DNA of 61,165 nt, filler included. It is 4 parts of 4 records of this genome, joined end to end, with 100 filler letters (N's around TTAATTAATTAA, not from the genome) between each part and the next. Parts side by side here need not be neighbours in the genome. Positions count along the whole stretch, not along the records: positions 1 to 29,927 come from DRR723986_11140; 3 more parts are not named here. The stretch is one strand, 5' to 3'. The stretch's first letter is position 1. Every line of letters begins with the position of its first letter. The position numbers were made by a program, and so were the translations under genes. Of this stretch, positions 3,226 through 43,930 are shown piece after piece. Below the pieces are notes generated by a model, which saw only the letters and a list, made by a program, of their open reading frames with translations, was not told the DNA's origin and ran no database searches.

Positions 3226-3231
3226 GCCCGG

Positions 3232-4939: not shown

Positions 4940-5030
4940 GCTGTCGCCGTCGGGAGCAAAAGGTCTGCTAGGATACCGAGCTTGCCGGTCCAGGTGTAGC
5001 GCACGGCACTGATTTCTTTCGGGGTTATTC

Positions 5031-6404: not shown

Positions 6405-6530
6405 ACCCCTGGGCCGGGTGGCGGCGCGTTTAGCAGCTTTCTCATTTGGCATTTGCGAATTTGCGTCTATATTCAATCAAGGCTCTATAAAAGAACCACC
6501 AAGAACAATAATCCTCGGGGGGGGAAAGTT

Positions 6531-9017
6531 GTGCCGGAAAGGTACGCGATAGCCATTGTAGGCGCCGGGCCCGCGGGCCTCAGTGCGGCCGGTCGTGCGG
6601 CAGAATACGATCGGGAAAGTGGCGCCACGTCACCCAGCTACATCCTCCTCGAAGGTTTCGATACCTTCGCCAAGACCATCCAGAAGTACCAGAAAGGCAA
6701 GCACGTCATGGACGAGCCTGGCTTCTTGCAGCTGCGCAGTCCGGTGCCGTTCACGGCGGGTAAACGTGAGGAGATTCTTGGTGCCTGGCAGCAGAGCCTG
6801 GATGCCGGTATTCACATCCGCTACGGGGTTGAGGTCACAGCGATCCAGGGTGAACTCGGCAACTTCACCCTGAGTATCGGTGGTGGTGAGACCATCGAGG
6901 CGGAAAACATCGTCCTGTCCATCGGTACCCAGGGCAACCCACGCTACCTGGGCGTCGACGGTGACCGTGAGTCAGATTTTGTCCGCTATACCCTGGATGA
7001 CCCGGCGGACTTCAAGGGTGAGACCATTATGGTCGTTGGCGCCGGCGACGCCGCGATCGAGAACGCTATTGCCCTGGCCGATTACAACGCGGTGTACATC
7101 GTCAACCGGCGCAACGAATTCAGCCGGGCCAAGGATGGTAACTTGAATGCCGTTCTGGCGGCGATCAATGACAAGAGCAACCGGTTCTACTGTCGCTACG
7201 AGGCGTCGGTCAATCGCCTGGAATTGCCCAGCGAGCCGGGTGGCCTGGGCGCCATGGTGCTCAATACACCGTCAGGCGAGGAGCGTATTGAATGCCACCG
7301 GATTATTGCCCGCCTGGGCACGGTGCCACCGCGCAGCTTCGTCGAATCCTGTGGCATCGAGATCAGCGGTGACAGCGCCGATGCGGTGCCGGATGTCGAT
7401 CGGCATTACCAGAGTAACGTCCCCGGGCTATACATCATTGGCGCTCTGGGCGGTTATCCGCTGATCAAGCAGGCCATGAACCAGGGCTATGATGTCGTCG
7501 AGTTCATCAACGGCAGGGACACCAAGCCGGCGGATTACCCCCTGCTGCAAAGCCAGTTCTCGGGCCTGCCTTATGTGATGGATGCCGAGGATGTGCTCTC
7601 GTTGTACCAGAGCCGGGTGCCCATGTTCCGCCGGATGAACCCCCTCGCTTTCCGCGAACTGATCATCGAGAGCCGGATCATCGTCAGCCTGCCCCCGGCC
7701 GATATGGCCCATGCGCCACCGCCGGCTGACCGGTCGACCGCGTTTGTGCCCGCCGATGAGCCGGTGTACAGCCACGGTGAATTCAGCACCACCTTCTATA
7801 CCATTGTGGAAGGTGAGGTGCAGATGCAGCTCGAAGAAGATGGGCCATTGCATACCCTCAAGCCCGGCCAGTTTTTCGGCGAAATGAGCCTGATCTCCGG
7901 GCGCCCGCGCCAGGGTTCGGCGGTGGTCGGTCGCGATTGCATCCTGATCGAGACCCCGCGTCGGATCATGGTCAAGCTGATGAACTCCAATGAGCAGGTG
8001 CGCACCGGGATTGACCGGGTGTTCATCATGCGCGCCCTGCAGTCGGCGTTCCGGCCCACACTGGAGCTGGCCCAGCTGGCAGATATTGCCGGCCGAGTCG
8101 AGCCCTGCCAGTTCAAGGCAGGTGAAACCCTGTTTACCGAGGGCGAGGCGGGAGACTGCCTGCACCTGGTACGCAGTGGTACGGTGATCCTGTCTCGCGG
8201 CAGCGCTGACCTGGTGGTGGCTCAACAGCACTCCGGGGAGTTGGTCGGTCAGATGGCGCTGATGGGAGCACCCCTGAGGCGTGACACTGCCACTGCCGCG
8301 GTGCGCACCGAGACCCTGTTGATCAGGCAGCCCGAGTTCCTCGCCCTGGTCAACAGCCAGCCCGACCATATCGGTGTCTTGCAGGGACGCCTGACCGAGT
8401 TACTCAAGAAATCCAATACCATGGCCTCGCAGCCGGAAGCGGCCCGGGCCATCGGTTTCCTGATGGAGCAGGGCCTTGGGGAAGCGACCAATGCCCTGGT
8501 TATCGACGAAGCCCTGTGCGTCGGCTGTGACAATTGCGAGCGTGCCTGCGCCGAGACCCATGGGGGTATTTCCCGGCTTAACCGGGAGTCCGGGGCCTCC
8601 CTGGCTAATCTCCATGTGCCGATTTCCTGTCGTCATTGCGAACTGCCGCACTGCATGAAGGACTGCCCGCCGGATGCGATTCGCCGAGCCCCAAATGGTG
8701 AGGTTTTCATTACCGACAGCTGCATTGGCTGCGGCAACTGTGAGACCAACTGCCCCTACGATGCGATCAAGTTGAGCTATGCGGCACCACCCAAGCCAGG
8801 CCTGCTGTCCTGGCTGTTCCTGGGCCGCGGCCCCGGGCCGGGTGAGCCAGAGCACTTCCAACCCACCGCCGAGTCCAAGGACGTGGGCAAGAAGGCGGTC
8901 AAGTGCGATGCCTGTATGGGACAGGCTGGTGGCCCGGCCTGCGTTCGGGCCTGCCCCACCGGGGCGGCGATCAGGCTCTCCCCGGAACAATTTGTTGAAT
9001 TGGTGGAAGCGCGATGA
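6531..9017 (+). CDS. FAD/NAD(P)H oxidoreductase fused to two cyclic-nucleotide-binding domains and a 4x[4Fe-4S] domain
   Basis: GAGPAG and GAGDAA Rossmann motifs; FGEMSLISGRPR and VGQMALMGAPLRRDTATA cNMP cassettes; CVGCDNCERAC, CRHCELPHCMKDCP, CIGCGNCETNCP, CDAC...CVRACP; GTG start after a G-rich RBS. Confidence 0.88.
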   Translation: MPERYAIAIVGAGPAGLSAAGRAAEYDRESGATSPSYILLEGFDTFAKTIQKYQKGKHVMDEPGFLQLRSPVPFTAGKREEILGAWQQSLDAGIHIRYGVEVTAIQGELGNFTLSIGGGETIEAENIVLSIGTQGNPRYLGVDGDRESDFVRYTLDDPADFKGETIMVVGAGDAAIENAIALADYNAVYIVNRRNEFSRAKDGNLNAVLAAINDKSNRFYCRYEASVNRLELPSEPGGLGAMVLNTPSGEERIECHRIIARLGTVPPRSFVESCGIEISGDSADAVPDVDRHYQSNVPGLYIIGALGGYPLIKQAMNQGYDVVEFINGRDTKPADYPLLQSQFSGLPYVMDAEDVLSLYQSRVPMFRRMNPLAFRELIIESRIIVSLPPADMAHAPPPADRSTAFVPADEPVYSHGEFSTTFYTIVEGEVQMQLEEDGPLHTLKPGQFFGEMSLISGRPRQGSAVVGRDCILIETPRRIMVKLMNSNEQVRTGIDRVFIMRALQSAFRPTLELAQLADIAGRVEPCQFKAGETLFTEGEAGDCLHLVRSGTVILSRGSADLVVAQQHSGELVGQMALMGAPLRRDTATAAVRTETLLIRQPEFLALVNSQPDHIGVLQGRLTELLKKSNTMASQPEAARAIGFLMEQGLGEATNALVIDEALCVGCDNCERACAETHGGISRLNRESGASLANLHVPISCRHCELPHCMKDCPPDAIRRAPNGEVFITDSCIGCGNCETNCPYDAIKLSYAAPPKPGLLSWLFLGRGPGPGEPEHFQPTAESKDVGKKAVKCDACMGQAGGPACVRACPTGAAIRLSPEQFVELVEAR

Positions 9018-9898
9018 GCCTGCGCCAGACTGTGCTTGGCTGGAACCGCCATGCCTACCTCAAGTGGGGCGTGCTGGTCATCATTGTCAGTGCAGCGCTA
9101 TACATCAGCCAGTGGTGGAGTGCGAGCCAGCCGCCCAATGGCGGGACCTGGCAGGGCTATGTGCTGGGCACTGCCGGTGCCCTGCTGATTCTCTGGCTGT
9201 CACTGCTTGGGATCCGCAAGCGCAGCTACCGTTCCAACATGGGTACGGTGCAGGGCTGGACCTCGGCCCATGTCTATCTCGGCAGCGCGCTGCTGGTGAT
9301 TGCAACCCTGCACTGCGCCATGCAGTTCGGCTGGAATGTGCATACCCTGGCCTACGCTTTGATGTGCCTAGTCATCTTCTCCGGTTTCTACGGCATCTAC
9401 GTCTATGTTCACCTGCCTGAGCGTATGGCCGCCAACAGCGCGGAGAAAGACCGCGCCCGTTGGCTGGACGAGCTCGATGACCTGGACGCCAGCATCCGTG
9501 ACGTGGTGCAGCGCTGTGACGCCGAGTTACAAAGCATGGCCTTGTCGGCCCTCGAACTGACCCGGTTCGGTGGCTCGGCGTGGCACCAGCTGAGCGCCCG
9601 GGATTACTCGCGCCTGCAGCCGCCTGGTGGCGGCCGGCCGGTGGCCAACAAAGAACAGGCGGTAATATTGCAGACCCTTGCCGAGCGCATACCGAATGCG
9701 CGCAAACGTTCCGAGGCCGAAGTACTGAATGAGCTATTGGCGCTGTTCGGTCGCCGCCAGGTGATCCTGCACGTGCTGCGCAAGGACATCCAGCTCAAGG
9801 GGCTGGTCAAGGTCTGGCTGTATCTGCACATCCCGCTGACCCTGGCGCTGCTGGTCGCGCTGGTCATCCATATTCTCTCTGTCTTTATTTACTGGTAA
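9014..9898 (+). CDS. Inner-membrane protein, predicted di-heme b type
   Basis: Several TM helices; two H-x13-H pairs (HVYLGSALLVIATLH, HIPLTLALLVALVIH); ATGA overlap with upstream gene. Confidence 0.7.
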   Translation: MSLRQTVLGWNRHAYLKWGVLVIIVSAALYISQWWSASQPPNGGTWQGYVLGTAGALLILWLSLLGIRKRSYRSNMGTVQGWTSAHVYLGSALLVIATLHCAMQFGWNVHTLAYALMCLVIFSGFYGIYVYVHLPERMAANSAEKDRARWLDELDDLDASIRDVVQRCDAELQSMALSALELTRFGGSAWHQLSARDYSRLQPPGGGRPVANKEQAVILQTLAERIPNARKRSEAEVLNELLALFGRRQVILHVLRKDIQLKGLVKVWLYLHIPLTLALLVALVIHILSVFIYW

Positions 9899-9902
9899 CG
9901 CC

Positions 9903-11621
9903 GTGTATTTTCTCGTACGCAGACTGACCGGCAGGGGCGCCAGCGAAGCACTGGAAGCTGACTTCCAGGGTGAACAGCTGACCTTTGGCAGTGGTGGCAT
10001 GGTCGAACTGCCCGGGCTGGATGGCAGCCTTCAGCTGGAAAAATCCGGCGATGGTGCCGCCCGCTACAGCGCGCGCAAGCTAGCCCTGGAGTTTGAGGGC
10101 AAGGCGACCAAGTCCGGTACCCTGGCGGTGGGCGACAGCCTGCAGTTGCCGGGATATACCCTGCAACTCATTCCCGCTCCGGCGGGCTTCGACCTGGCAG
10201 TGCAGCTGGCTCCGGCGGAAGGTCGTGCAAGGATCGACCACGGTCGCCTGACCCTGGCGGAGAGTGCATTCAGTATCCGCAGGGCCAGCTGGGTGTTGGC
10301 CCTGCTGGTCCTGATCCTGTTCCTGATCATACCGGCGGCTGGCCTGTTGCGGCCGGAGCTGGCGGGTGTATTGCGTGATTCGCCACTGCCGGATGATGGT
10401 CTGTGGTCCAGCGGCCCCCTGGCATCGGCCCACCGTACGGCAGGTGTGGCAGAAGACTGTGGCGCCTGCCACAGCACGCCGTTTGTGATGGTCAAAGACC
10501 AGGCCTGCCTCGACTGCCACCGCGAGACCCGGGAGCATGTCAGTCTCGAGGTTCACGATCCGGAATTGTTTACTGGCGAGCGCTGTGCCTCCTGCCACCG
10601 GGAGCACAATGAGCCCGCCTGGGTAGTTAACCGGGACAAGGGTCTATGCGTGGACTGCCATGCGGACACAGGCCCCTGGCAAGTGCCGGGGGCGAGCGGG
10701 ATGAGCCCGGTACATGCCTTTACCGGGTCCGGGCACCCGGATTTCCGCCTCGCCATGTTGCTGCCCCAGGGCCCGGGCGCTGCCCACGGCTGGGAAGTCA
10801 CCCGCCAGTCGCGCGGGGACGTGCCGGCGCAGGAGCAATCCAATCTCAAGTTTGACCATGAAGTGCACCTCGATAGCGACAAGGTGCAGCACGAGGGTTC
10901 CGGCGAGGCCCTGGCCTGCGCCAGCTGTCACACGCTGGCCGATGATGGCGAGCATTTCGAGCCAGTGACCATGGATGCGCATTGCCGCAGCTGCCACACG
11001 CTCAATTTCGACATCTTTGAACCGGACCTGGAACTGCCGCACGGTGACCTGAGGGCAGCGATCGTGGCCATGGAAGCGCATTTCATTCGCGAGTTCACTG
11101 ATCCGGCCTTGCGCCAGGAAAGGGCCGGCCAGAAGCCACGGCGCGTACCGGGTAAGCGCGAGGCGGCGGCTGCCTGTGAAGGCTCCGGCCTGGATTGTGG
11201 TCGGGCAGAGGCACTCAAGGAAGCACAGTACCAGTTTGCGGAAACCGGCTGTATTACCTGCCATGAAGTGACGGAAACCGGGCTGACCGATATTTCCGAC
11301 CGCTGGTTTGTGCAACCGGTGCGGGTGACGACGGACTGGTATCCGTTCAGCAGCTTTGACCACAGCGCCCACCTGTCACTGGCGTCCGACAACGAGGCCG
11401 AGGTCTGCGTTGCCTGCCATGAGGCACCGACATCCAGTGTTGCGACCGACGTCCTGATACCCGGTCAGGCCAACTGCCTGGGCTGTCACGATGAAAACAA
11501 GGGCAACTCGGCGGTGGACTGCGTGGGTTGCCATGACTTCCACCAGGCAACTGGCGGATTGTCCACACTTGCCCGTGGTGCCGTCATAGACCGACCCGCG
11601 ATGGACTTGCAGGGGGATTGA
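9903..11621 (+). CDS. Membrane-anchored decaheme cytochrome c with N-terminal cytoplasmic domain
   Basis: Ten CxxCH motifs after an internal TM helix (WVLALLVLILFLII); ~125-aa N-terminal domain precedes the TM. Confidence 0.85.
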   Translation: MYFLVRRLTGRGASEALEADFQGEQLTFGSGGMVELPGLDGSLQLEKSGDGAARYSARKLALEFEGKATKSGTLAVGDSLQLPGYTLQLIPAPAGFDLAVQLAPAEGRARIDHGRLTLAESAFSIRRASWVLALLVLILFLIIPAAGLLRPELAGVLRDSPLPDDGLWSSGPLASAHRTAGVAEDCGACHSTPFVMVKDQACLDCHRETREHVSLEVHDPELFTGERCASCHREHNEPAWVVNRDKGLCVDCHADTGPWQVPGASGMSPVHAFTGSGHPDFRLAMLLPQGPGAAHGWEVTRQSRGDVPAQEQSNLKFDHEVHLDSDKVQHEGSGEALACASCHTLADDGEHFEPVTMDAHCRSCHTLNFDIFEPDLELPHGDLRAAIVAMEAHFIREFTDPALRQERAGQKPRRVPGKREAAAACEGSGLDCGRAEALKEAQYQFAETGCITCHEVTETGLTDISDRWFVQPVRVTTDWYPFSSFDHSAHLSLASDNEAEVCVACHEAPTSSVATDVLIPGQANCLGCHDENKGNSAVDCVGCHDFHQATGGLSTLARGAVIDRPAMDLQGD

Positions 11622-11624
11622 GCG

Positions 11625-13598
11625 ATGGCTTGGAAACTTACAGGTGCGATTCTGGCCCTGGTACTGACAGCCTGCAGCGGCGGTGGGGGTGGCGGTAGCA
11701 GCGCCGGTACCTCCCCGGATGTCGACCCTGCGAATGACCCCTGCACAGGCCAGTGTGCCGGCCCGGATTCCCGACTGACGGTAGGCGATGTAAAGCAGGT
11801 GCTAGCTCGAGCGGTACACCAGGCTGAAGCGCTTGGGGAGACCGCCACCATTGCCGTGGTGGACCGGGTAGGTAACGTGCTGGCGGTGTACCGCATGGCA
11901 GGCAAGGTCAAGGATGTGGCCATCAGCACCACCTTCCCGACTACCATCACCACCGGCCTGGAGGGTGTTGTCTTGCCAGCGGCCATTGGGGGTGACGCCC
12001 TGGCGGCCATCGCCAAGGCGGTGACCGGCGCGTATCTCTCCAGCGAAGGTAATGCCTTCACCACCCGCACCGCGAACCAGATCGTGCAGGAACACTTCAA
12101 TCCCGGCGAGCAGAACCAGCCCGGTGGTCCCCTGTTCGGTGTTCAGTTCAGCCAGCTCGCCTGCTCGGACTTCACTCTGGGCGATGCTGGCGTTGGACCC
12201 GGCCCGCAGCGCTCACCATTGGGACTTTCCGCTGATCCCGGTGGCCTGCCATTGTTTAAGAACGGTACCCCCGTGGGCGGGGTCGGGGTGATTGCCGATG
12301 GTCAGTACTCGATCGACAAGAATATCCTCAACAGTGATCGCGATATTGACGAGATGATCGCTGTCGCGGCGACCTATGACTATGCCGCGCCCAGAGATCG
12401 GCGCGCCGACCGGATCACGGTGGAGGGCAAGACCTTCCGCTTCAGCGATGTGGATTTTGATGACCTGCCGGCGGACCCGGCCCAGGCCGCGGATTTTGAC
12501 TCTCTCGTGGATGCGGGCCAGCTGCTGCCGGTGAACGGTTACACGGATGGTAGTTTGCGCGCCGGTACCGCGTTTGGCCAGCCGGACTCCGGTATAGTTC
12601 CTGCCACCGGCTTTAGCGGCCTCGATGCTTTCATGTTCGTCGATGCCGCGGGCAATAACCGCTTTCCGCCTCGCAAGGGCACTGATGCTGACAAGCTCAA
12701 CGGCGCGCCGCTCTCGGCGGCGGAAGTACGCCAGCTACTGAATTCCGCAATCGCTATCGCCAATCGGTCGCGCGCCCAGATTCGGCGGCCCCTGGGCAGT
12801 AAGGCCCGGGTGACGGTCTCCATCGTGGACAGCCAGGGTACTATTATCGGGATGTTGCGTACCCGTGACGCGCCGGTGTTTGGCGCCGATGTATCCCTGC
12901 AGAAGGCGCGTACTGCGACCCTGTTCTCGTCGCGTGATGCCGCGGACTTCTTCCGCGGAATCACCAGCCCGGCCCAATACCTCAACCCCGACCTGACGCC
13001 CAAGGCGCAGGTGTTCATGGCTTCTTACGTCGATGCCGCGCAGAACTTTATCGGCCCCCAGGCATTGACCGACGGCACGGCCTTTTCCGACCGGGCCGGC
13101 GGCAACCTGTCGCGCCCGTTCTACCCGGACGGTATCCGGGGCAACGATAACGGCCCGTTCAGTAAATCCTTTCGCAATAATGAGTGGAGCGTTTTCTCCT
13201 CCGGTCTGCAGCTGGATCTGGTATTCAACCGGATCATCGAGCACATCTTGTTTGCGGCTGGCGCCGCGCCCGCGGATGTACCACCCAATTGCGCCGAGTC
13301 GGATGCTCCCAGGCTGGCCAACGGTAGCCAGATTTTCCCTGGCAGTGTGCCGATTTACCGCGGCGATGAACTGGTCGGTGGGATCGGGGTGTCCGGCGAT
13401 GGTATCGACCAGGACGATATGATCAGTTTCCTCGGAGTGCACGAGGCAGGCCTTGCCCTGAACGGAGCGATCAACAACGCGCCGCCTGAACTGCGTGCCG
13501 ACACACTCAAGCCCCAGGGCACGCGATTGCGCTACATACAGTGTCCGCAGACGCCGTACCTGGACAGTAACGAACAGCAAGTGTGCGACGGGAAGTGA
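11625..13598 (+). CDS. Lipoprotein with two GlcG/HbpS (heme-binding) domains
   Basis: Lipobox LTAC then Gly/Ser linker; two copies of IAVVD.../KAxT.../GGxPx..VGGxGVxxDG pattern. Confidence 0.78.
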   Translation: MAWKLTGAILALVLTACSGGGGGGSSAGTSPDVDPANDPCTGQCAGPDSRLTVGDVKQVLARAVHQAEALGETATIAVVDRVGNVLAVYRMAGKVKDVAISTTFPTTITTGLEGVVLPAAIGGDALAAIAKAVTGAYLSSEGNAFTTRTANQIVQEHFNPGEQNQPGGPLFGVQFSQLACSDFTLGDAGVGPGPQRSPLGLSADPGGLPLFKNGTPVGGVGVIADGQYSIDKNILNSDRDIDEMIAVAATYDYAAPRDRRADRITVEGKTFRFSDVDFDDLPADPAQAADFDSLVDAGQLLPVNGYTDGSLRAGTAFGQPDSGIVPATGFSGLDAFMFVDAAGNNRFPPRKGTDADKLNGAPLSAAEVRQLLNSAIAIANRSRAQIRRPLGSKARVTVSIVDSQGTIIGMLRTRDAPVFGADVSLQKARTATLFSSRDAADFFRGITSPAQYLNPDLTPKAQVFMASYVDAAQNFIGPQALTDGTAFSDRAGGNLSRPFYPDGIRGNDNGPFSKSFRNNEWSVFSSGLQLDLVFNRIIEHILFAAGAAPADVPPNCAESDAPRLANGSQIFPGSVPIYRGDELVGGIGVSGDGIDQDDMISFLGVHEAGLALNGAINNAPPELRADTLKPQGTRLRYIQCPQTPYLDSNEQQVCDGK

Positions 13599-13603
13599 GC
13601 GCC

Positions 13604-15493
13604 ATGGACAGGAGAGAGCTCGTGAAAAATCCGATTCTGTACCCTGCCTTGCTGGCGACGTTGCTGATGGTACCGCTCGTCGCGCCGGCACAGGATGAAG
13701 CGGCTGCCCAGGCAGCAATGGAAGCTGACGAGGCCTGTGATGATCTGCAGACCCGCGACCGCAGCCGCAGCAGTCGCCGCCGGACCCGGGCTGCGAACCG
13801 GGATTGCGAGTACCGCGAGACGGTAGTCGACCAGGAGACCGGTGAAGTCCTCCGCGAGACCCCGGTCGCCGCCGCCCCGCGCACCGTTCTGCCGCGGCGC
13901 TATTCACCGATTCCGCGACCGACAGCCGAGCAGTATGTGGAGCATGTGGCGATACCCGACCGCTGGCGCATCGTCGACAGCCTGGGCTACGAGGACAACT
14001 GGTGGAACCCGTATGACCAGAACACGATCAAGGGCGACAAACCCATCCACGATGACTGGTTCTTCAACGTAACCGCCATCTCAGACACCGTGCTGGAATT
14101 GCGTGAGGTGCCAACCCCGGTGGGTGTTCAGTCCACGGATCGAGCCGGCACGCTGGATGTACTGGGTGGCACCGAACAGGCGACGTTCAACCAGAACCTG
14201 GCGGTTGAACTGGTCTACTACAAGGGTGACACGGTCTTCAAGCCACCGGACTGGGAATACCGATTTACCCCGGTGTTCAACTACAACTACACCGAAATCG
14301 ACGAGGTGACCGGGATCAATGCCGATCCGGCGGATGGCATTACCCGCAATGACAACCATGTGGGAATCCAGGCGGCCTTTGTCGACAAGCACTTGCGCAA
14401 CGTCTCCGACCGCTACGACTTCGACAGTATCCGGGTTGGGATCCAGCCTTTTTCCAGTGATTTCCGCGGCTTCCTGTTTCAGGACGCGCCCTTCGGTGTG
14501 CGCCTGTTCGGCAACCGTGATAACAATCGCTACCAGTACAACCTGGCCTGGTTCCGGCGCATGGAGAAGGACACCAATTCGGGCCTCAACGACATCAGTG
14601 AAGACCTGCGCGAAGATGATGTGTTCGTGGCCAATCTGTATTGGCAGGACCAGCCGGCACTGGGTTTCTTCTCCCAGTTCACCGTGCTGTACAACCGCAA
14701 TCGCGAGACGGAAATCTTTTACGACACCAATGACTTCATTGCCCGACCGGCATCTATCGGTGAGGAGCGGTTGCGCGAGTATGACGCCTATTACCTTGGC
14801 TACAACGGCGACGGCCATTTCGGTCGGCTGAACCTGACGACCTCGTTCTATGTCGCACTTGGTGAAGAGGAAGATGCCGTATTCAGCGGTGAGTCGTCGG
14901 ATATCGAGGCGTACTTCTTTGCGGTCGAGCCGTCGATGGATTTCGATTGGATTCGGGCGCGCGCCTCCTTCCTTTACGGCTCAGGTGACGACGATCCCTT
15001 CGACGACAAGAGCCAGGGCTTCGACGCCATTTTCGAGAACCCGCAGTTTGCCGGTGCCGATACCAGCTACTGGATTCGCCAGGGCGTACCGTTGATCGGT
15101 GGTGGCCGGGTGGCCCTGTCGCAGCGCAACGGGGTGCTCAACTCGCTGCGTTCGTCCAAGGAACATGGTCAGTCCAACTTCACCAACCCGGGTATCTTCC
15201 TGTTGGGTGGCGGTGTCGACCTGGACCTGTTGCCGGAACTGAGGCTGTCGTTTAACGCCAACTACCTTGCCTTTGCCGAAACCGAGGTACTGGAAGTGGC
15301 ACGGCAGCAGGATAACGTCGACAAGGAGATCGGCCTCGACCTGTCGGCCGCCGTAATCTGGCGCCCGTTCATGAGCCAGAACGTGGTGGTTAGGGTGTCC
15401 TACGCCCAGCTGCTGGGTGGCGATGGCTTTGAGGATCTTTACGGGGATGAAGACCCGTACTCCCTGCTGTGCAACCTGATACTGACCTTCTGA
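13604..15493 (+). CDS. Putative outer-membrane beta-barrel protein
   Basis: Signal peptide (...PLVAPA/QD), aromatic/Asn/Asp-rich amphipathic strands, C-terminal Phe (LILTF). Confidence 0.72.
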   Translation: MDRRELVKNPILYPALLATLLMVPLVAPAQDEAAAQAAMEADEACDDLQTRDRSRSSRRRTRAANRDCEYRETVVDQETGEVLRETPVAAAPRTVLPRRYSPIPRPTAEQYVEHVAIPDRWRIVDSLGYEDNWWNPYDQNTIKGDKPIHDDWFFNVTAISDTVLELREVPTPVGVQSTDRAGTLDVLGGTEQATFNQNLAVELVYYKGDTVFKPPDWEYRFTPVFNYNYTEIDEVTGINADPADGITRNDNHVGIQAAFVDKHLRNVSDRYDFDSIRVGIQPFSSDFRGFLFQDAPFGVRLFGNRDNNRYQYNLAWFRRMEKDTNSGLNDISEDLREDDVFVANLYWQDQPALGFFSQFTVLYNRNRETEIFYDTNDFIARPASIGEERLREYDAYYLGYNGDGHFGRLNLTTSFYVALGEEEDAVFSGESSDIEAYFFAVEPSMDFDWIRARASFLYGSGDDDPFDDKSQGFDAIFENPQFAGADTSYWIRQGVPLIGGGRVALSQRNGVLNSLRSSKEHGQSNFTNPGIFLLGGGVDLDLLPELRLSFNANYLAFAETEVLEVARQQDNVDKEIGLDLSAAVIWRPFMSQNVVVRVSYAQLLGGDGFEDLYGDEDPYSLLCNLILTF

Positions 15494-15502
15494 GGAGCTG
15501 AT

Positions 15503-18500
15503 ATGAGATTTCGCGACAGTAAACAGCCCCGGAGAACAGGCCTCGCGGTCTGGGGGGCGGCACTCGGACTGGTCTTGCTCGCCGTTCCCGTCAGCTACAC
15601 CCTGAGTGCTTCCGGATACAATAAGGTCGAGCGTAATCACGTGACTGCGCCCAACGCGCCTGCCAGCCAGAGCAGCGCCCAGATGGATGCCAAGTCGGAA
15701 GGTTGCGAGAGCTGCCACACGGCCACGGACCAGAAAACCATGCACGCCAACCCGGCGGTGAAGCTGGGCTGTACCGATTGTCATGGCGGCAACGCCGGCG
15801 TGTTCCGACCCGAGGGCACCGACAGTATTGCCCAGCAGGCTTATCTCGGCGCCATGGAAGAGGCGCATGTGCTGCCGGAGTATCCGGATGACTGGCATTT
15901 CCCGTCCAGCGCCAACCCCGAGCAGTCCTATACCCTGCTCAACCGCGAGAGCCCGGAATTTGTCCGGTTCGTAAACCCGTCTGATTACCGAATTGCCCGA
16001 GAGGCCTGCGGCGCCTGTCACCTGCCGATCATCGAAGCCGCCGAGCGCAGCCTGATGGCGACTTCCGCCATGCTCTGGGGTGGTGCCGCCTACAATAACG
16101 GTATCCTGCCGTTCAAGCGTTACATCCTGGGTGAGGCCTATACCCGCGAGGGTGAGCCCGCCTCAATCGTGGCGCCGCTCAAGCCCACCGCCGAGATGAC
16201 CGAGCAAGCCAGCATCCTGCCCCAGCTTTATCCACTGCCGGCCTGGGAAACAGTCAAGCCGGGCGATATCTTCCGAGTCTTCGAGCGCGGTGGCCGTAAT
16301 ATCAGCAACCTGTTCCCGGAAACCGGGCTGCCCAATGCCCTCGGGCAGTTGCAGCGTCTGGAGGAACCGGGCAGACCCGATATCCGCCAGTCGAACCGGG
16401 GCCCCGGCACCGGTGGCCGTATTTCGGTGCCGCTGATCAATATCACCAAGACCCGCCTGAACGATCCCCATACCTGGTTTATGGGCACCAATGACCAGCC
16501 CGGGGACTACCGCAGTTCCGGCTGTGCTTCCTGCCACGTGGTATACGCCAATGATCGCGATCCCAAGCATTCCGGTCAGTACGCGCAGTTTGGCCATACC
16601 GGGAAATCCCAGAGCGCTGACCCAACCATTCCGCGGGACCGCGAGGGGCATCCGCTCAAGCATGAATTCACCCGGGCGATCCCCACGAGCCAGTGCATGA
16701 TCTGTCACATGCACCAGCCGAATATGTTCGTGAACTCCTACCTCGGTTACACGATGTGGGACTACGAGTCGGACGCACCGTCGATGTGGCCGGAGAAGCA
16801 GGTTTACCCGACCCACGAGGAGCGCCGCAAGGTCTACGATCGCAACCCCGAGGGCGCGGCACCGCGCGGCAAATGGGCGGATATTGAGTTCCTCAAGGCC
16901 GTATCGGAAATGAACCCGACCTTGAAGGATACCCAGTTCGCCGATTACCACGGCCATGGCTGGAACTTCCGCGCGATTTTCAAACGCGACCGCAAGGGCA
17001 ACTTGCTGGACGCCGAAGGCGATATCGTTAGCGATGAGGACCCGGACAAGTTCGACAAAGCGGTGCACATGGCATCGATCCATATGGATAAGGGCATGCA
17101 CTGCGTCGATTGCCACTACGCCCAGGATAACCATGGCAACGGACATATCTACGGCGAGGTCGCAGCCGCTGTGGAGATCGACTGCAAGGACTGTCACGGC
17201 TCGATCAACGCCTACCCGAACCTGTTTACCTCGGGTCCGGCGGCCCTGGAAGGCGGCACCGATTTGGGTGCGATCCGCAACCCGGATGGTCGCCTGCGCT
17301 TCGAGTGGGTCGACAATAAGCTGATGCAGCGCTCGGTGCTGGACCCGGAGCTGGAGTGGGAAGTCAGCATGGTCAAGGACTCGGTGGACCAGGATCACGC
17401 TGACTACAACGCGAAAGCCGCCCGCGCCAAGCTAATGAGCTCGGACACTGCCAAGCAGGACTGGGGTCAGGAGGTCGCCGCCAGCGGCAGCCTCGCACAC
17501 GACGACGAGGAGATGGAGTGCTATACCTGCCACACCTCCTGGACCACGAGCTGTGGCGGTTGTCACCTGCCTATCCAGGCCAACGAGAAGACCGACCGAC
17601 ACCACTACGAGGGTGGCGAGACGCGTAACTACGCGACCTACAATCCGCAGGTCGCCCGCGACCAGATGTTCCTGCTCGGCCGTCGTGAGACTGCCAAGGG
17701 CGGTAAGATTGCGCCGGTCCGTTCCACCTCCGCGCTGGTCCTGTCATCCACCAATGCGAATCGGGAGAAGATTTATATCCAGCAGCCGCCGATCGCGGCG
17801 AGCGGGTACAGCTCCCAGGCCTTTAACCCGCACTTCCCGCACACCGCGCGCAAAACTGAGACCAAGCAGTGCGAGGATTGCCACCTCAGTAAGAACAACG
17901 ACAACAATGCCATAATGGCGCAGTTGTTGATGCACGGCACCGACTTTGCCGACTTCCTGGGCTTTATTGCCTATGTGGGAAGTGAAGAGCATGTCACCGG
18001 CGTGCAGGTCACTGAGTGGGAAGAGCCGCAGGCGGTGATCGGCAGCTACCTGCAGCGCTATGCCTATCCCGATTATTTCCGGCAGCATGTGGATGCAGGC
18101 AGAATTCTGGCTCACGGCTATCCGCACGGTTCCGGGCCGGTTGGCTGTGTGCAGATGCGTGGCGAGTACCTGTATGTCGCCGAGGGCAGCAAGGGCATGC
18201 AGGCCTACGATATTGCCAGCATCGCCAACAAGGGCGTTTCCCAGCGGATAATCACTGCGCCCTTCAGCCCGCTGGGGCACGATACGCGGATTGAAAGCAG
18301 CAACGCCACCTGCGTGGTGCTGCCAACTACCCAGCCCATCCATCCCTCGCGCAACGAGGGTGACCTGATGCGCAAGGTGAATCTCGAGCAGCCTTTCCAC
18401 CCTCTGTACGAGTACGCCTATATTACCGATGCCGAGGAAGGCCTTATCCTGACCAGCCTCGACACCTTCATGGATGGGGAACCGCGCAACAATTTCCTGG

Positions 18501-19252
18501 AGCGGGCGCTGACCTGGAACGAGAACGGTGTGCTCAATGGTGCCCGGCATATGGCCATTGGGGGCTACTATGCCTATGTCATCGCCGATGCCGGCCTGGT
18601 CATACTCAATATTGATCAGCCGCTGGCGCCGAAGGTTGAGGCCGTCCTGGCCCTGAACAACGGCCACTCCGTGGCGCTGCAGTTCCGCTACCTGTTTGTG
18701 ACCGACGCCGACGGGCTTAAGGTAGTCGATATCACCCGGCCCGCCGCCCCGCGGCTGGTTGAGGGCAATACCATTCCCTTGCAGCAGGCGCGGCGCATGC
18801 ACCTGGCCAGGACCTACGCCTATGTCGCGGCCGGTTCCCAGGGCATGGCCATTGTCGATATTGAAAATCCGGAGCAGCTGAAGCTGGTGCAGACCTTCGA
18901 CACGGGGCTGGTGGACAGTCACGACGTGACCGTGGCGAGCACCAACGCCTCACTGTTCGCCTACGTGGCGGATGGCAAAGGCGGGCTCAAGGTGATCCAG
19001 CTCACGTCGCCCTCCAGTCAGCCGAAGTTTTACGGCTTCAGCCCCGAGCCTCAGCCAGAGTTGATTGCCAGCTACCCGACGGCGTCTCCCGCGCTGTCAC
19101 TGTCCCGGCCGCTGGAGCGGGACCGCGGTGTGGATGAAACAGGCGGTCAGGTGGCGGTGTTCGGCCGGGTGGGTTCACGGCCGCTGAACAAGGAAGAAAT
19201 GGAATCCCTGTATCTCGATAAAGACGGTAAGCCATGGTACGTGGAAAACTGA
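15503..19252 (+). CDS. Large exported decaheme cytochrome c with C-terminal LVIVD-like repeat (beta-propeller) region
   Basis: Signal peptide; ten CxxCH motifs; C-terminal repeats YLYVAEGSKG, YAYVIADAGLVILNI, YLFVTDADGLKVVDI, YAYVAAGSQGMAIVDI, FAYVADGKGGLKVI. Confidence 0.87.
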   Translation: MRFRDSKQPRRTGLAVWGAALGLVLLAVPVSYTLSASGYNKVERNHVTAPNAPASQSSAQMDAKSEGCESCHTATDQKTMHANPAVKLGCTDCHGGNAGVFRPEGTDSIAQQAYLGAMEEAHVLPEYPDDWHFPSSANPEQSYTLLNRESPEFVRFVNPSDYRIAREACGACHLPIIEAAERSLMATSAMLWGGAAYNNGILPFKRYILGEAYTREGEPASIVAPLKPTAEMTEQASILPQLYPLPAWETVKPGDIFRVFERGGRNISNLFPETGLPNALGQLQRLEEPGRPDIRQSNRGPGTGGRISVPLINITKTRLNDPHTWFMGTNDQPGDYRSSGCASCHVVYANDRDPKHSGQYAQFGHTGKSQSADPTIPRDREGHPLKHEFTRAIPTSQCMICHMHQPNMFVNSYLGYTMWDYESDAPSMWPEKQVYPTHEERRKVYDRNPEGAAPRGKWADIEFLKAVSEMNPTLKDTQFADYHGHGWNFRAIFKRDRKGNLLDAEGDIVSDEDPDKFDKAVHMASIHMDKGMHCVDCHYAQDNHGNGHIYGEVAAAVEIDCKDCHGSINAYPNLFTSGPAALEGGTDLGAIRNPDGRLRFEWVDNKLMQRSVLDPELEWEVSMVKDSVDQDHADYNAKAARAKLMSSDTAKQDWGQEVAASGSLAHDDEEMECYTCHTSWTTSCGGCHLPIQANEKTDRHHYEGGETRNYATYNPQVARDQMFLLGRRETAKGGKIAPVRSTSALVLSSTNANREKIYIQQPPIAASGYSSQAFNPHFPHTARKTETKQCEDCHLSKNNDNNAIMAQLLMHGTDFADFLGFIAYVGSEEHVTGVQVTEWEEPQAVIGSYLQRYAYPDYFRQHVDAGRILAHGYPHGSGPVGCVQMRGEYLYVAEGSKGMQAYDIASIANKGVSQRIITAPFSPLGHDTRIESSNATCVVLPTTQPIHPSRNEGDLMRKVNLEQPFHPLYEYAYITDAEEGLILTSLDTFMDGEPRNNFLERALTWNENGVLNGARHMAIGGYYAYVIADAGLVILNIDQPLAPKVEAVLALNNGHSVALQFRYLFVTDADGLKVVDITRPAAPRLVEGNTIPLQQARRMHLARTYAYVAAGSQGMAIVDIENPEQLKLVQTFDTGLVDSHDVTVASTNASLFAYVADGKGGLKVIQLTSPSSQPKFYGFSPEPQPELIASYPTASPALSLSRPLERDRGVDETGGQVAVFGRVGSRPLNKEEMESLYLDKDGKPWYVEN

Positions 19253-20520
19253 TAGGTCTTGTATTACTGCTGCTTGGCGCTGTGTCGGCGTCAGGCCAGC
19301 CCTTGCCTGAAACGGGTGCTAACCCGCATGAAGGCGTGGCGAGCTGTGCCGCCAGCGTCTGTCATGGCAAGATCAGCGAGGATCCGTCGTCGACCGTATG
19401 GCTCAACGAGTACCGGATCTGGCTGCGCCAGGACTACCATTCAAGAGCCTACAAGACCTTGCAGACCGCCCAATCCAAGGCCATAGCCAGCAAACTCGGC
19501 TTGCCCGCGGCACACACGGCGAAGATCTGTCTGGACTGCCATGCGGACAATGTGGCGGTGGAATCGCGCGGGCGACGATTCCAGATTTCCGACGGGGTGG
19601 GTTGCGAGGCCTGTCACGGCGGTTCGGGCCAGTGGCTGGAGTCCCACGCTGAACAGGGCACGTCCCACGCCGATAACCTGGCTGCGGGTATGTACCCTAC
19701 CGAGGATCCCCTGGCCCGGGCGCGACTGTGTCTCTCCTGCCACCTCGGCACCAAGGATAAGTTCGCCACCCACCAGATCATGGGCGCGGGACATCCCCGG
19801 CTGGCCTTTGAACTTGAAACTTTCACTGTAAACCAGCCACGGCACTACGACGTGGATGCGGACTACCGCGAGCGCAAGCCCGCGATCAGCTCGGTGAACA
19901 TGTGGCTGGCGGGACTTGCGGTCACCGGTATGCAGTCGCTTGAGTTGTTGCAGGAAGCGTGGTTTACCAAGCCAAGCCTGGTGCCGGAACTGTCTTTTTA
20001 CCAGTGCCACGCCTGTCATCACCCGATGAACGACCTGCGCTGGGAGCCCGAGCCGGACGGCCTCAAGCCCGGCACCGCAAGGCTGAATGATGGCAGCCTG
20101 GTAGTGCTGGCCGTGGTCCTGGATATCCTCAACCCCGGAGACGGTCAGGCGATCGAACAGGGCCTGCGAAAATTGCACCAGGCCTCGCAGCGGGATCGCG
20201 ACGCGGTGGTCAGCGCTGCCCGTGAGTTGCAGGGCCGCCTGGAGCCCCTGGTCAGTGCGCTGGCGGGCAACAGCTATGGCCCCGATGCCATGCGGAGCCT
20301 GCGCCAGGGCTTGCTTGAAAGCGCTGCATCCGGTCGTTTCCGGCACTTCACGTCCGCTGAGCAGGTGTTCCTGGCGGTGGAGACCCTCAGCCTGTCGCTT
20401 GGCGATAACGAACGCTACACCATCCAGTTGGATGCCTGGTTCAAGACCGTGGAGGAGGATGATCCCTTCGTGCCCAAACAGTTTGCCGTGCTGGCCAGAA
20501 AAATGAGGGATGCGCTTTGA
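19234..20520 (+). CDS. Exported multiheme cytochrome c (c554-like N terminus)
   Basis: Signal peptide; CLDCH, CEACH, CLSCH, CHACH plus atypical CAASVCH; overlaps upstream stop. Confidence 0.82.
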   Translation: MVRGKLIGLVLLLLGAVSASGQPLPETGANPHEGVASCAASVCHGKISEDPSSTVWLNEYRIWLRQDYHSRAYKTLQTAQSKAIASKLGLPAAHTAKICLDCHADNVAVESRGRRFQISDGVGCEACHGGSGQWLESHAEQGTSHADNLAAGMYPTEDPLARARLCLSCHLGTKDKFATHQIMGAGHPRLAFELETFTVNQPRHYDVDADYRERKPAISSVNMWLAGLAVTGMQSLELLQEAWFTKPSLVPELSFYQCHACHHPMNDLRWEPEPDGLKPGTARLNDGSLVVLAVVLDILNPGDGQAIEQGLRKLHQASQRDRDAVVSAARELQGRLEPLVSALAGNSYGPDAMRSLRQGLLESAASGRFRHFTSAEQVFLAVETLSLSLGDNERYTIQLDAWFKTVEEDDPFVPKQFAVLARKMRDAL

Positions 20521-22685: not shown

Positions 22686-24080
22686 TTACTGCTCGTCCGC
22701 AGCCTTAATCTTTTGCGCAAGCGTGTCAGCCAGGTCAGTTTTCTTCGCCTGCCTGAGCCGTGCAAGTCCCTGGCTGACCTGTTCTGTATCATTTTCTCGG
22801 GCTGCTGTCTCAATCTGTTCCACCAGTGTGTTGATGAGCCGCGCCTCCAGTTCAGCCGCCTCGGAGCTCTCGGGCGCAAGCTGTAGTGCTTCGCCCGCGA
22901 GACCAAGCGCGCTATCCTCCGCGGGATAGAACATCTGCCCATTCCACAGATTTACCTTGGCCTGGGTAAGCAGTTCGCGCAATCGCTCGTCGTCTGCCAC
23001 TTCCTCAGCCAACGGCGTAGTCGCCTGATCGACATTAGCAGCAGTACTACTACTGTTGTCGGGCGTACTGGTAGCAGCCTGCAGAGCTTCTGCGTTCTCC
23101 GGTACCTCGGGTGACCGGGTGCTGATGCCGAAAAATACGAGGGACGCGACTATAGCTGCCGCCGCTACCCCGACCAGCGCGTGCGAGGTTGTTATTTTTG
23201 GCTTTCCCGACTCATTGCTGCGTGGCGGTACGCGTTTCAGCCGTGAGTCCATCGTTGGCTGCTGATTGACGGGTGCTTCACGCTGAACTTCAGCGTCTTC
23301 GATAGCCTGGCGCAACTCAGCTGCCGAGGGGTGCCGGTCTTCGGGCATTTTCGCGAGGGCGCGGTTGATCACACCCTGAAAATGCGCGTTGTTCTCGCTG
23401 AGTTCCGGTATATCCGCAGTGGTATGCTGATAAGCCAGCGCCGCATAATTGTCGCCACGGTAGGGGAGGCGACCTTCCAAAAGTTCAAACAGCACGATGG
23501 CGAGGCTGTACAGATCGCTTCGGAAGTCAGTTGCGCTACCTGTGCATTGTTCCGGGCTCATGTAATGCGGGGTACCCATGATCGTGCCCGCTACCGTTAA
23601 CTGGGTTTCAGAATCAAGATCTCGCGCGATCCCGAAGTCCACCAGTACCGGGCTGCCATCTTCCCGGAACAGGATGTTCGCCGGCTTTATGTCCCGGTGT
23701 ACAACGTGTTTCGAGTGAGCATAGCTGAGCGCGTCCGCCACCTGCTTTACAATGGCTACACCCTCAGCGCGGGTAACATTTTTGCTATGGATACGGTGCT
23801 TTAAATCAACACCGGGTAGTAGTTCCATGGCGAGATAAATATGATTGTTTTGCCGACCCATATCGAAGACATTCACAATACCCTGATGGCCCAGGCTGGC
23901 AACGATGCGTGCTTCCCTTAGGAATCGTTCGACGAAGGCGTCTGTGGTCGCAAGCTTTTCACTCATGATTTTCAGCGCCACTTTGCGCTTGAAATTCGTC
24001 TGCTCCGCAAGCCAGACGGTGGACATCCCACCTTGTCCCAGTTGGGACTCGAGGATATAGCCGTCGATTTCTGGAAGCAT
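22686..24080 (-). CDS. Hanks-type Ser/Thr protein kinase, transmembrane
   Basis: LGQGGMSTV, VALK, HRDIKPAN, DFG, GTPHYMSPEQ; TM ALVGVAAAAIVASLVFFGI. Confidence 0.95.
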   Translation of the reverse strand: MLPEIDGYILESQLGQGGMSTVWLAEQTNFKRKVALKIMSEKLATTDAFVERFLREARIVASLGHQGIVNVFDMGRQNNHIYLAMELLPGVDLKHRIHSKNVTRAEGVAIVKQVADALSYAHSKHVVHRDIKPANILFREDGSPVLVDFGIARDLDSETQLTVAGTIMGTPHYMSPEQCTGSATDFRSDLYSLAIVLFELLEGRLPYRGDNYAALAYQHTTADIPELSENNAHFQGVINRALAKMPEDRHPSAAELRQAIEDAEVQREAPVNQQPTMDSRLKRVPPRSNESGKPKITTSHALVGVAAAAIVASLVFFGISTRSPEVPENAEALQAATSTPDNSSSTAANVDQATTPLAEEVADDERLRELLTQAKVNLWNGQMFYPAEDSALGLAGEALQLAPESSEAAELEARLINTLVEQIETAARENDTEQVSQGLARLRQAKKTDLADTLAQKIKAADEQ

Positions 24081-27050: not shown

Positions 27051-27101
27051 TTGACAGAACGGGCTGGACAAAGGGCGTCCTCAGCGTAAGTGGAGTAGAA
27101 A

Positions 27102-29927: not shown

Positions 29928-30027
29928 NNNNNNNNNNNNNNNNNNNNNNNNNNNNNNNNNNNNNNNNNNNNTTAATTAATTAANNNNNNNNNNNNNNNNN
30001 NNNNNNNNNNNNNNNNNNNNNNNNNNN
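29928..30027. other. Artificial contig spacer
   Basis: 100 bp: N run, TTAATTAATTAA (stops in all frames), N run. Confidence 0.98.
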
Positions 30028-43829: not shown

Positions 43830-43929
43830 NNNNNNNNNNNNNNNNNNNNNNNNNNNNNNNNNNNNNNNNNNNNTTAATTAATTAANNNNNNNNNNNNNNN
43901 NNNNNNNNNNNNNNNNNNNNNNNNNNNNN
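43830..43929. other. Artificial contig spacer
   Basis: 100 bp N/TTAATTAATTAA/N. Confidence 0.98.
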
Positions 43930-43930
43930 C

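Follow-up and report, generated by a model that had tools for sequence, protein, structure and literature searches.

The DNA analysed here is a window of 61,165 nucleotides, filler included, made up of four parts from four records of one genome joined end to end. It carries a gene for an 828-residue protein in which a flavoprotein, two cyclic nucleotide monophosphate (cNMP)-binding domains and a ferredoxin domain for four iron–sulfur (Fe–S) clusters are fused into one polypeptide. The gene is real and ordinary-looking and stands first in a widespread, uncharacterised operon, where genes for a five-helix inner-membrane protein and a decahaem cytochrome follow it. On balance, the fusion is probably the regulated cytoplasmic input subunit, passing electrons from NADPH through FAD to Fe–S clusters, of a transmembrane electron-export chain resembling NADPH oxidase (NOX). 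A preliminary description of this DNA had proposed the three-part fusion; Pfam and motif analysis bear it out, and all three parts are kept in 76 of 76 relatives. These 76, used for all conservation counts of the fusion given below, are near-full-length proteins from different species, taken from 80 loci with four truncated matches omitted.

Limits, architecture and spread of the fusion gene

The open reading frame (ORF) runs from GTG 6531 to a TGA stop at 9015-9017. A longer alternative frame begins at TTG-6453, but the GTG is the preferred start because a G-rich Shine–Dalgarno-like run lies immediately 5' of it, a promoter-like site falls inside the longer frame and homologues of 820–880 amino acids (aa) share the start residue. 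The promoter candidate at 6446-6473 is a match to the consensus only, and two such sites occur in 10 kb compared with 2.2 expected. A sequence scan of the 828 residues revealed neither a signal peptide nor a transmembrane (TM) segment.

Pfam analysis assigned residues 6-319 to Pyr_redox_2 (E 7.9e-25), detected cNMP_binding in two copies (E 8.6e-32) and matched residues of approximately 650-820 to several 4Fe-4S dicluster families. No NCBIfam model reached its cut-off on the fusion; the best, YpdA, TrxR and DmsB, were all far below. A word-indexed protein search returned 6488 proteins at E ≤ 1e-3 among 8000 candidates scored. Among the 120 matches listed, which are 672-879 aa long and 56-94% identical to the fusion, Pyr_redox, cNMP and Fer4 families appear in the precomputed Pfam column of all but one (P0038), so this architecture lies far beyond chance. 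Where database names are given, they are generic ('cyclic nucleotide-binding domain-containing protein'). A scan of one genome per species identified at least 618 stretches encoding the fusion among at least 645 pattern matches, and a second scan, seeded with P0141, identified 189. The fusion is spread across Gamma-, Beta- and Alphaproteobacteria, Nitrospinota, Binatia and Myxococcota, and hosts in the genome scans include Halieaceae, Lysobacterales, Woeseiaceae and Colwellia.

Structure prediction had been proposed as a check in the preliminary description. An AlphaFold2 model of the whole fusion has a mean predicted local distance difference test (pLDDT) of 70 and a predicted template modelling score (pTM) of 0.58. 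The flavin and cNMP parts mostly score in the 80s, but the geometry between domains cannot be read from it.

A flavin module related to thioredoxin reductase-type ferredoxin reductases

The N-terminal module features the motifs GAGPAG (residues 11-16), GAGDAA (170-175) and NRRNEFSRAK (192-201), after which its C-terminus runs on into a linker and the cNMP domains. GxGxxG, GxGxxA, N192 and R199 are kept in 76/76 relatives and R193 in 75/76, which upholds the earlier proposal of an RR-type NADPH motif, here of the (H/N)RRxxxR type. It had also been proposed that the module is a flavoprotein of the thioredoxin reductase (TrxR) fold that lacks CxxC and resembles ferredoxin-NADP+ reductases (FNRs). 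In agreement with this, none of 77 sequences (the window protein and its relatives) has a CxxC within the first 380 residues, where the window protein has cysteines only at 221, 255 and 274. A conserved cysteine pair that might substitute for CxxC was ruled out, since C221 is kept in 73/76 relatives but C255 in only 44/76. The retention of C221, in the NADPH domain (~7191-7193), although it lies outside any CxxC, is an observation in its own right.

A Foldseek search with the fusion model placed TrxR-type ferredoxin/flavodoxin-NADP+ reductases on top (8c3m, E 6.9e-19; 6gar, 2zbw, 8c16, 3ab1 and 3lzw), followed by YpdA/Bdr 7a7b, IruO and true TrxRs, with the tandem cyclic nucleotide-binding domains of protein kinases G and A (PKG and PKA) lower. 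The best structural matches of the N-terminal module are therefore TrxR-type FNRs, such as Bacillus subtilis YumC (3lzw), B. cereus FNR1/2 and the T. thermophilus enzyme (2zbw), together with YpdA/Bdr, at E 7e-19 to 1e-17 and template modelling scores to target of 0.45-0.67, the last figure being that of 7a7b. The module shares with these FNRs the TrxR fold, two Rossmann dinucleotide motifs, the lack of CxxC and an NADPH-type basic motif. It differs from them in that identity is only 18-20% and its 'ferredoxin' is encoded in cis, behind two sensor domains. Neither disulfide reductase family applies: the thioredoxin-disulfide reductase model TIGR01292 scores 56.2 bits against a cut-off of 343.45, and the YpdA bacillithiol disulfide reductase model TIGR04018 scores 75.2 against 339.9, despite the good fold match to 7a7b.

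Tandem cNMP domains with conserved phosphate-binding cassettes

Tandem cNMP domains between the flavin module and the cysteine clusters, as first described, are confirmed by Pfam (PF00027, 109.4 bits over two stretches against a cut-off of 27.5) and by an alignment to the yeast PKA regulatory subunit (3of1_A, E 8e-15) that spans both cassettes. The first cassette of the window protein reads FFGEMSLISGRPRQGS. In the alignment, FGEMSLISGRPRQGS stands opposite FGELALMYNSPRAAT, and VGQMALMGAPLRRDTATA, the second cassette, stands opposite FGEVALLNDLPRQATVTA. Both appear to follow the regulatory subunit pattern Gly-Glu ... Arg-x-x-Thr/Ser. In domain A, every one of the 76 relatives has G450, E451 and R460, and the window protein reads RQGS where R-x-A-T prevails among them. 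In domain B, G573 and the phosphate-binding R583 are kept in 76/76 and Thr/Ser586 in 74/76, and position 574 is Gln in the window protein and 12/76 relatives and Glu in 64/76.

The GQ of the second cassette had raised the suspicion that this domain is degenerate. The conservation at 574, 583 and 586 contradicts this, and GQ is better seen as a conservative, lineage-specific change in what looks like an otherwise canonical cassette than as decay. PKA regulatory subunits (yeast Bcy1 3of1, RI-alpha) and PKG likewise have two consecutive cNMP domains, and approximately 200 residues and both cassettes align with the fusion. The tandem studied here differs in sitting between two redox modules rather than serving to regulate a kinase, and in the replacement of the domain B Glu by Gln in the window lineage. 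Class III cyclase domains were found in 5/5 relatives' genomes that encode the fusion, compared with 4/14 control genomes.

A four-cluster ferredoxin domain of the HycB type

The C-terminal domain features four cysteine groups, at 663-673 (CxxCxxCxxxC), 700-712 (CxxCx4CxxxCP), 731-741 (CxxCxxCxxxCP) and 792-808 (CxxCx8CxxxCP), and all 16 cysteines are kept in 76/76 relatives. Their number and spacing are those of the four-cluster ferredoxins of the HycB/DmsB/NrfC kind. The preliminary description had named DmsB and NrfC as the closest types; four clusters stand, but the closest solved relative is the cytoplasmic HycB, subunit 2 of Escherichia coli formate hydrogenlyase (7z0s_B, E 7e-19), and not these periplasmic proteins. 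The alignment to HycB runs end to end and includes the long insert before the fourth group, and the same four groups, spacing and insert are shared with HydN and with the DmsB/NrfC family. Scores are far under every NCBIfam ferredoxin cut-off (DmsB TIGR02951, 53.5 vs 214.1 bits; NrfC TIGR03149, 40.5 vs 377.6 bits), and the setting is not that of DmsB or NrfC either, as there is no signal peptide and the neighbour is a five-helix bis-His protein and not an NrfD/DmsC-type anchor. Compared with HycB and HydN, the ferredoxin of the fusion is a domain of a larger protein, and its membrane partner is neither of the NrfD/DmsC type nor a hydrogenase subunit.

A neighbouring five-helix protein with two bis-His motifs

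The ATG of the next gene overlaps the stop codon of the fusion gene (ATGA, 9014-9017). It encodes a 294-aa protein with WTSAH-x13-H on helix 3, SGFYG on helix 4 and WLYLH-x13-H on helix 5. Two WX3HX13H motifs and SGxxG are present in 72/72 complete homologues, and an alignment of 18 sequences shows H86, H100, H272, H286, W82, W268, S123-G124-G127 and the cytoplasmic R68-K69-R70 to be invariant. The model of this protein is confident and all-helical (pLDDT 85.4). He et al. defined this motif set for the inner-membrane protein ('IMP') of putative PCC3/PCC4 clusters, and their description likens it to the two H-x13-H pairs that bind two haems b in NOX and ferric reductases (PMC5566968). The 294-aa protein has the features of that family, which are a length of about 300 aa with five TM helices, SGXXG on helix 4 and one WX3HX13H motif on each of helices 3 and 5. 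Judged by its motifs, it is a putative di-haem protein, with ligands placed as for a stack of two haems b.

Conservation of the locus

Gene order was counted in the first 80 loci, taking in only those with enough downstream DNA. The membrane gene follows the fusion in 69/70, the decahaem gene follows in 60/61, the lipoprotein gene in 50/57 and the barrel-like gene and the LVIVD cytochrome gene in 45/52 each (these genes are described in Table 1). The outer genes lie upstream in L013 and on the other strand in L062, and none was found within 9 kb in L034, L056, L057, L071 and L072. A second, more divergent set of 80 loci, seeded with P0141, includes Colwellia, Limnobacter, Rhodocyclaceae, Zhongshania, Nitrospinota, Binatia, Myxococcales and Bdellovibrionales. 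The TrxR-like part is fused upstream in 79/80 of these loci, so P0141 (440 aa) was rejected as a probe for stand-alone forms and P0208 was used instead. In the second set, the membrane gene follows in 58/70 loci and the decahaem gene in 55/67. Multihaem ORFs lie just upstream in 7 of the 12 loci in which the membrane gene does not follow, which indicates a rearranged operon.

Within the family of the relative G002, 17 of 81 genomes encode the fusion, the same 17 encode the membrane protein, with the two genes adjacent in 17/17, and 64 encode neither; kinship inflates this co-occurrence figure. The distribution within this family is patchy, as for an accessory module, and overall the link between fusion and membrane gene is strong but not universal.

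Architectural variants of the cNMP/Fe–S core

A full-library search with residues 390-828, the core of the fusion, matched 14179 representatives at E ≤ 1e-3, of which 367 reached E ≤ 1e-30. Variants were counted in the top 150 representatives, and 18 proteins were scanned against Pfam. The TrxR-like module precedes the core in 52/150, and the cNMP tandem is present in all 52 TrxR-fused forms, except for 2/150 without a cNMP part by blastp. A further 72/150 have cNMP and Fe–S parts without the TrxR-like module; many of these are fragments, and about 30 are 440-565 aa long. FHA domains are fused in front in 4/150 (P0231, P0239, P0255 and P0166, the last with two FHA domains and the TrxR-like module), and a NuoG-like 2Fe-2S/4Fe-4S N-terminus was found in 4 of the 18 scanned proteins (P0240, P0244, P0246 and P0269). 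The N-terminal FHA domains of core variants number one to four, and those of three core-fused proteins are 34-43% identical to the FHA protein of the window. A single representative, P0146 (1110 aa), is a four-part fusion whose chain extends through the membrane protein, including its two WX3HX13H motifs; it is possible that this is an artefact of a lost stop codon.

Stand-alone cores are encoded in L161 and L162, from Gemmatimonadota-type genomes, where the next ORF specifies 265 aa and has WX3HX13H twice. Because the stand-alone core keeps its membrane partner while the front modules differ, the invariant pair is the cNMP/Fe–S protein and the bis-His membrane protein, with a variable input module and periplasmic acceptor. 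In L161 and L162 (8382-11319), the core and its membrane partner sit behind genes for a cytochrome c'-like monohaem protein, a GAF-domain histidine kinase and a second GAF-domain protein, which is another sensory setting for the core.

Proposed mechanism and its alternatives

In the proposed chain, NADPH would reduce FAD in the TrxR-fold module, and single electrons would then pass along the four [4Fe-4S] clusters of the HycB-type domain and enter the cytoplasm-side haem b of the five-helix protein (H86/H272). They would cross the membrane to the periplasm-side haem b (H100/H286) and move on to the membrane-anchored decahaem protein, and from there to the lipoprotein, the outer-membrane barrel and further multihaem cytochromes. 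NADP+ has a potential of approximately -320 mV and the membrane potential is negative inside. Outward flow is therefore favoured, being downhill and helped by the membrane potential, whereas electrons moving inward to NADP+ would have to climb in potential and work against the membrane potential. Outward flow would spend both reductant and membrane potential, as in NOX, and would thus need a switch; such dissipation offers a rationale for heavy regulation, seen in the cNMP tandem, the FHA fusions and the FHA, PP2C and kinase genes next door. Gating of electron transfer by a cyclic nucleotide, as first suggested, is plausible. Bound nucleotide would most probably alter the geometry between modules or docking on the membrane protein, and a change in dimerisation is a further option.

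Several observations weigh against the reading of the fusion as the input subunit of an export chain. The Fe–S domain is poorly modelled (pLDDT 35-50), and at a pTM of 0.58 the model is uninformative on FAD-to-cluster and domain-to-domain geometry. Pfam links the membrane protein significantly neither to Ferric_reduct (PF01794, absent even at E ≤ 5) nor to cytochrome b families; its best match is Ni_hydr_CYTB at E 1.2e-3, below the cut-off. A VIA-align fold search with its model gave CybB (5oc0_A, Z 9.4) and STEAP4 (6hcy_C, Z 9.0), scores that fall among generic helical bundles and under the noise level for helical proteins, and Foldseek gave no match at E ≤ 1e-3. The nucleotide ligand cannot be named from sequence, and the cyclase evidence comes from relatives' genomes. 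The membrane gene is not adjacent in 12/70 divergent loci or in the exceptional L072 of the first set, and no cytochrome or bis-His membrane gene lies within 9 kb in L116, L121, L126, L138 and L141 (Nitrospinota and Binatia). In L116, from a metagenome-assembled genome of Nitrospinia, the fusion (7942-10281) sits between CheB, SPOR, PyrD and Alr genes. Our literature search found no characterised member beyond the gene-list descriptions of PCC4 and ptd. As for the five orphan fusions themselves, their partners may be encoded elsewhere, or the protein may have another job in these phyla.

Two alternatives concern where the electrons go. One is inward flow, in which Fe(II), Mn(II) or another donor in the periplasm or outside the cell would supply electrons to the quinone pool or NAD(P)+. 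The hosts in the genome scans (Halieaceae, Lysobacterales, Woeseiaceae and Colwellia) are mainly aerobic heterotrophs and not iron oxidisers, which speaks against it. Established bioenergetics makes the NADP+ branch of such a route uphill and opposed by the membrane potential, and the cluster encodes no proton pump or other device for coupling. We regard inward flow as distinctly unlikely, even though the cluster has a probable outer-membrane barrel and 25 haem-c motifs, related PCC4 clusters occur in Fe(II)-oxidising bacteria and He et al. drew an inward model (PMC5566968). It is also unlikely, if somewhat less so, that the fusion and the membrane protein form a quinone-linked enzyme comparable to succinate:quinone reductase, which likewise combines a flavoprotein, an Fe–S wire and a di-haem b anchor. 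He et al. did propose the five-helix protein as a quinone-active cytochrome b (PMC5566968), Pfam relates the membrane protein weakly to prokaryotic cytochrome b561 (E 1.2e-3) and MsrQ, a related kind of haem protein, is reported to have a ubiquinone cofactor (PMC12525009). However, a decahaem protein with its own membrane anchor follows the membrane gene in most loci of both sets (60/61 and 55/67), which fits direct transfer from haem to haem.

The other two alternatives concern the sensor domains and the partners of the fusion. Many CRP/FNR-type effector domains bind other ligands, and the cNMP-type domains could act as a structural spacer, a dimerisation unit or the receptor of another ligand without any gating by cyclic nucleotides. 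The RQGS of domain A, the Gln of domain B and the evident presence of other regulation (FHA, PP2C and kinase genes next door, and FHA domains fused in other lineages) are consistent with this. The invariance of the residues that make the ribose-phosphate contacts in PKA (Gly-Glu and Arg in A, Gly and Arg in B) argues the other way, as do the near-constant Thr/Ser586, the prevalence of Glu574, the cyclases in all five host relatives and the near-universal tandem in TrxR-fused forms; we therefore consider an ungated protein a serious but minority possibility. It is very improbable that the fusion is a free-standing soluble, cNMP-regulated NADPH:ferredoxin-like oxidoreductase with cytoplasmic acceptors, whose neighbourhood reflects co-regulation only. 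The orphan copies, including the one among CheB, SPOR, PyrD and Alr genes, would suit such an enzyme, but the translational overlap with the membrane gene, the co-occurrence in the same 17 of 81 genomes, the four-part fusion P0146 and the flavin-less core that keeps the same membrane partner all speak against it.

The regulated export chain can be extended into a bolder scheme, which is tentative and, taken as a whole, rather doubtful. Binding of cNMP would shift the four-cluster domain with respect to the flavin or the haems in the membrane. This would switch on NOX-like, NADPH-driven electron export through the cell envelope in aerobic bacteria that are common in the sea and in soil, with FHA/phospho-threonine control added in some lineages. 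Outside the cell, the electrons could go to Fe(III) or Mn oxides, or to O2 to give superoxide. To our knowledge, no enzymatic source is known for most extracellular superoxide of heterotrophic bacteria. If the export-chain reading holds, electrons would have a way from NADPH in the cytoplasm to the cell surface that does not depend on quinones, built from familiar parts in a new order and fitted with its own second-messenger sensor. A literature search found no description of direct allosteric control of an Fe–S/haem electron chain by a cyclic nucleotide. As the module is common, its acceptor could bear on the chemistry of iron, manganese or reactive oxygen in soils and sediments. The system is compact and testable, and culturable hosts include Kineobactrum sediminis, Pseudohalioglobus lutimaris, Dokdonella immobilis, Tahibacter aquaticus, Colwellia echini and Limnobacter humi.

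The rest of the operon and its surroundings

Table 1. Positions of the fusion gene, its domains and the associated genes in the window
Feature	Position	Strand	Basis
Sigma-70-like promoter candidate (TTGGCA, 16 nt, TATATT)	6446..6473	+	10/12 consensus matches, in front of operon
Fusion gene, 828 aa: flavoprotein, two cNMP-binding domains, four-cluster ferredoxin	6531..9017	+	ORF, Pfam, motif scan, homologues
TrxR-fold FAD/NAD(P)H module, residues 1-330 (GAGPAG, GAGDAA, NRRNEFSRAK, without CxxC)	6531..7520	+	Pfam, Foldseek, motif conservation
cNMP-binding domain A, residues ~396-510, phosphate-binding cassette FGEMSLISGRPRQGS	7716..8060	+	Pfam; PKA regulatory subunit alignment; E451 and R460 76/76
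cNMP-binding domain B, residues ~513-632, cassette VGQMALMGAPLRRDTATA	8067..8426	+	Pfam; PKA regulatory subunit alignment; R583 76/76
HycB/DmsB-type ferredoxin domain, residues 650-828, 16 Cys for four [4Fe-4S]	8478..9014	+	Pfam, NCBIfam; HycB alignment; conservation
Five-helix inner-membrane protein, 294 aa, putative di-haem b electron gate	9014..9898	+	Hydrophobic segments, motifs, homologues, model
Decahaem cytochrome c, 572 aa, 10 CxxCH, N-terminal ~130-residue domain, one TM helix 131-149	9903..11621	+	Pfam, motifs
Lipoprotein, 657 aa, LTAC lipobox, three HbpS-like stretches	11625..13598	+	Pfam; synteny 50/57 loci
Secreted 636-aa protein, probable outer-membrane beta-barrel, C-terminal ...LILTF	13583..15493	+	Atlas; synteny 45/52
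Decahaem cytochrome, 1249 aa, 10 CxxCH, LVIVD beta-propeller repeat	15503..19252	+	Pfam, motifs
Cytochrome c554-like protein, 428 aa, 4 CxxCH and 1 CxxxxCH	19234..20520	+	Pfam, motifs
PP2C-type protein phosphatase, C-terminal hydrophobic segment	20517..21572	+	Pfam, sequence scan
Protein with two FHA domains and C-terminal TM helix	21595..22626	+	Pfam, sequence scan, blastp
Ser/Thr protein kinase, convergent with operon end	22686..24080	-	Pfam

The first decahaem protein retains 10 CxxCH motifs in 63/63 complete homologues. Pfam found no family in its first 166 residues even at E ≤ 5. The cytoplasm-side domain that precedes the TM helix (residues 1-130, 9903-10295) has FHA/PrgH-type look-alikes in the Atlas (0.82), a lead only, and blastp of this domain against the FHA protein of the window gave nothing (E > 6). 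If it were truly of the FHA type, it would be a second FHA link between the haem chain and phospho-signalling. The lipoprotein, which comes directly after the decahaem protein in 50/57 loci, resembles HbpS, a haem-binding/degrading family. Pfam found no family in the 636-aa secreted protein even at E ≤ 5; its Atlas look-alikes score 0.95-0.99 and include one cluster in which 100% of members have PF13372 (Alginate_exp). The FHA, PP2C and kinase genes adjoin the operon in the window and in the Halieaceae relative G002. FHA and PP2C were ruled out as a universal part of it: a close FHA orthologue lies 12.6 kb downstream in G002 only, and none is near the fusion in G004-G007.

A replication and repair cluster lies just upstream of the operon (1819-6404), with DnaB helicase at 1819-3225 and RadA at 5031-6404; RadA is also the upstream neighbour of the fusion in several Halieaceae loci. 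A 405-aa protein with three stretches of the DnaT DNA-binding domain is encoded at 3815-5032, on the strand opposite to DnaB and RadA. Further along, a two-partner secretion pair (25296-29975) consists of a ShlB/FhaC-type transporter with POTRA and a 957-aa exoprotein with a TPS domain, in the lowest-G+C stretch of the window (0.485-0.535). A polA-like ORF (668 aa, region 41871-44794) ends approximately 100 positions into the polymerase domain, and the adjacent ORF (43955-44794) encodes a MiaB-like radical-SAM/TRAM protein without its N-terminal part. The G+C content climbs from ~0.55 to 0.63 at this point. Taken together, these features suggest that sequence was deleted, rearranged or joined in assembly at ~43.9 kb. 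Finally, a 1853-aa protein (50593-56157, minus strand) features eight stretches of RTX calcium-binding repeats and a C-terminal Hint domain.

Comparison with known systems

The core of the system, consisting of the Fe–S protein, the membrane protein and the decahaem protein, has already been listed, without experiments, as PCC4 and as ptdEFG. In subgroup II of PCC4, as described by He et al., an Fe–S gene (pfam13247) lies upstream of the IMP gene and a decahaem gene is also present (PMC5566968). In the account of the ptdABCDEFG cluster, PtdE has cNMP and 4Fe-4S parts, PtdF is a TM protein resembling ferric reductases, the decahaem protein is PtdG and a separate FAD/NAD(P) oxidoreductase is PtdC, and the function of the cluster is called 'completely unknown' (bioRxiv 10.1101/2023.11.21.568154). 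The window shows the same order for PtdE, PtdF and PtdG (6531-9017, 9014-9898 and 9903-11621). As published, these clusters share with the window the cNMP/4Fe-4S protein, the five-helix membrane protein, the decahaem protein, a porin-like gene and other multihaem cytochromes, a likeness set by published descriptions. Unlike ptd, the window has a TrxR-fold FAD/NADPH module fused in front and no separate PtdC-like gene. The outer genes also differ, comprising an HbpS-like lipoprotein, an LVIVD decahaem protein and a c554-like pentahaem protein here, compared with the 4- and 5-haem proteins described for ptd and PCC4. The parts of the two accounts drawn on here describe neither the TrxR-fold fusion nor the HbpS-like/LVIVD outer set (PMC5566968; bioRxiv 10.1101/2023.11.21.568154). 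The present analysis adds that Glu at position 574 is the rule across the family, and it also adds the variants with fused FHA domains or a NuoG-like N-terminus and the orphan copies in Nitrospinota and Binatia.

The overall layout proposed for the window operon, a multi-subunit one, is comparable to that reported for NOX, FRE, SpNOX and Fre-MsrQ, where a cytoplasmic NAD(P)H flavin module likewise feeds two bis-His haems b, stacked across the membrane, that reduce an acceptor outside. The haem ligands of NOX and FRE are described on helices 3 and 5 with H-x13-H spacing (PMC5566968), as in the window membrane protein. Unlike in NOX and FRE, the flavin module has the TrxR and not the FNR fold, and an Fe–S wire and two cNMP domains are interposed. 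The five-helix membrane protein differs from NOX, FRE and MsrQ in having no Pfam match to Ferric_reduct, and the proposed acceptor is a decahaem cytochrome rather than the O2 or molybdenum enzyme served by NOX and Fre-MsrQ.

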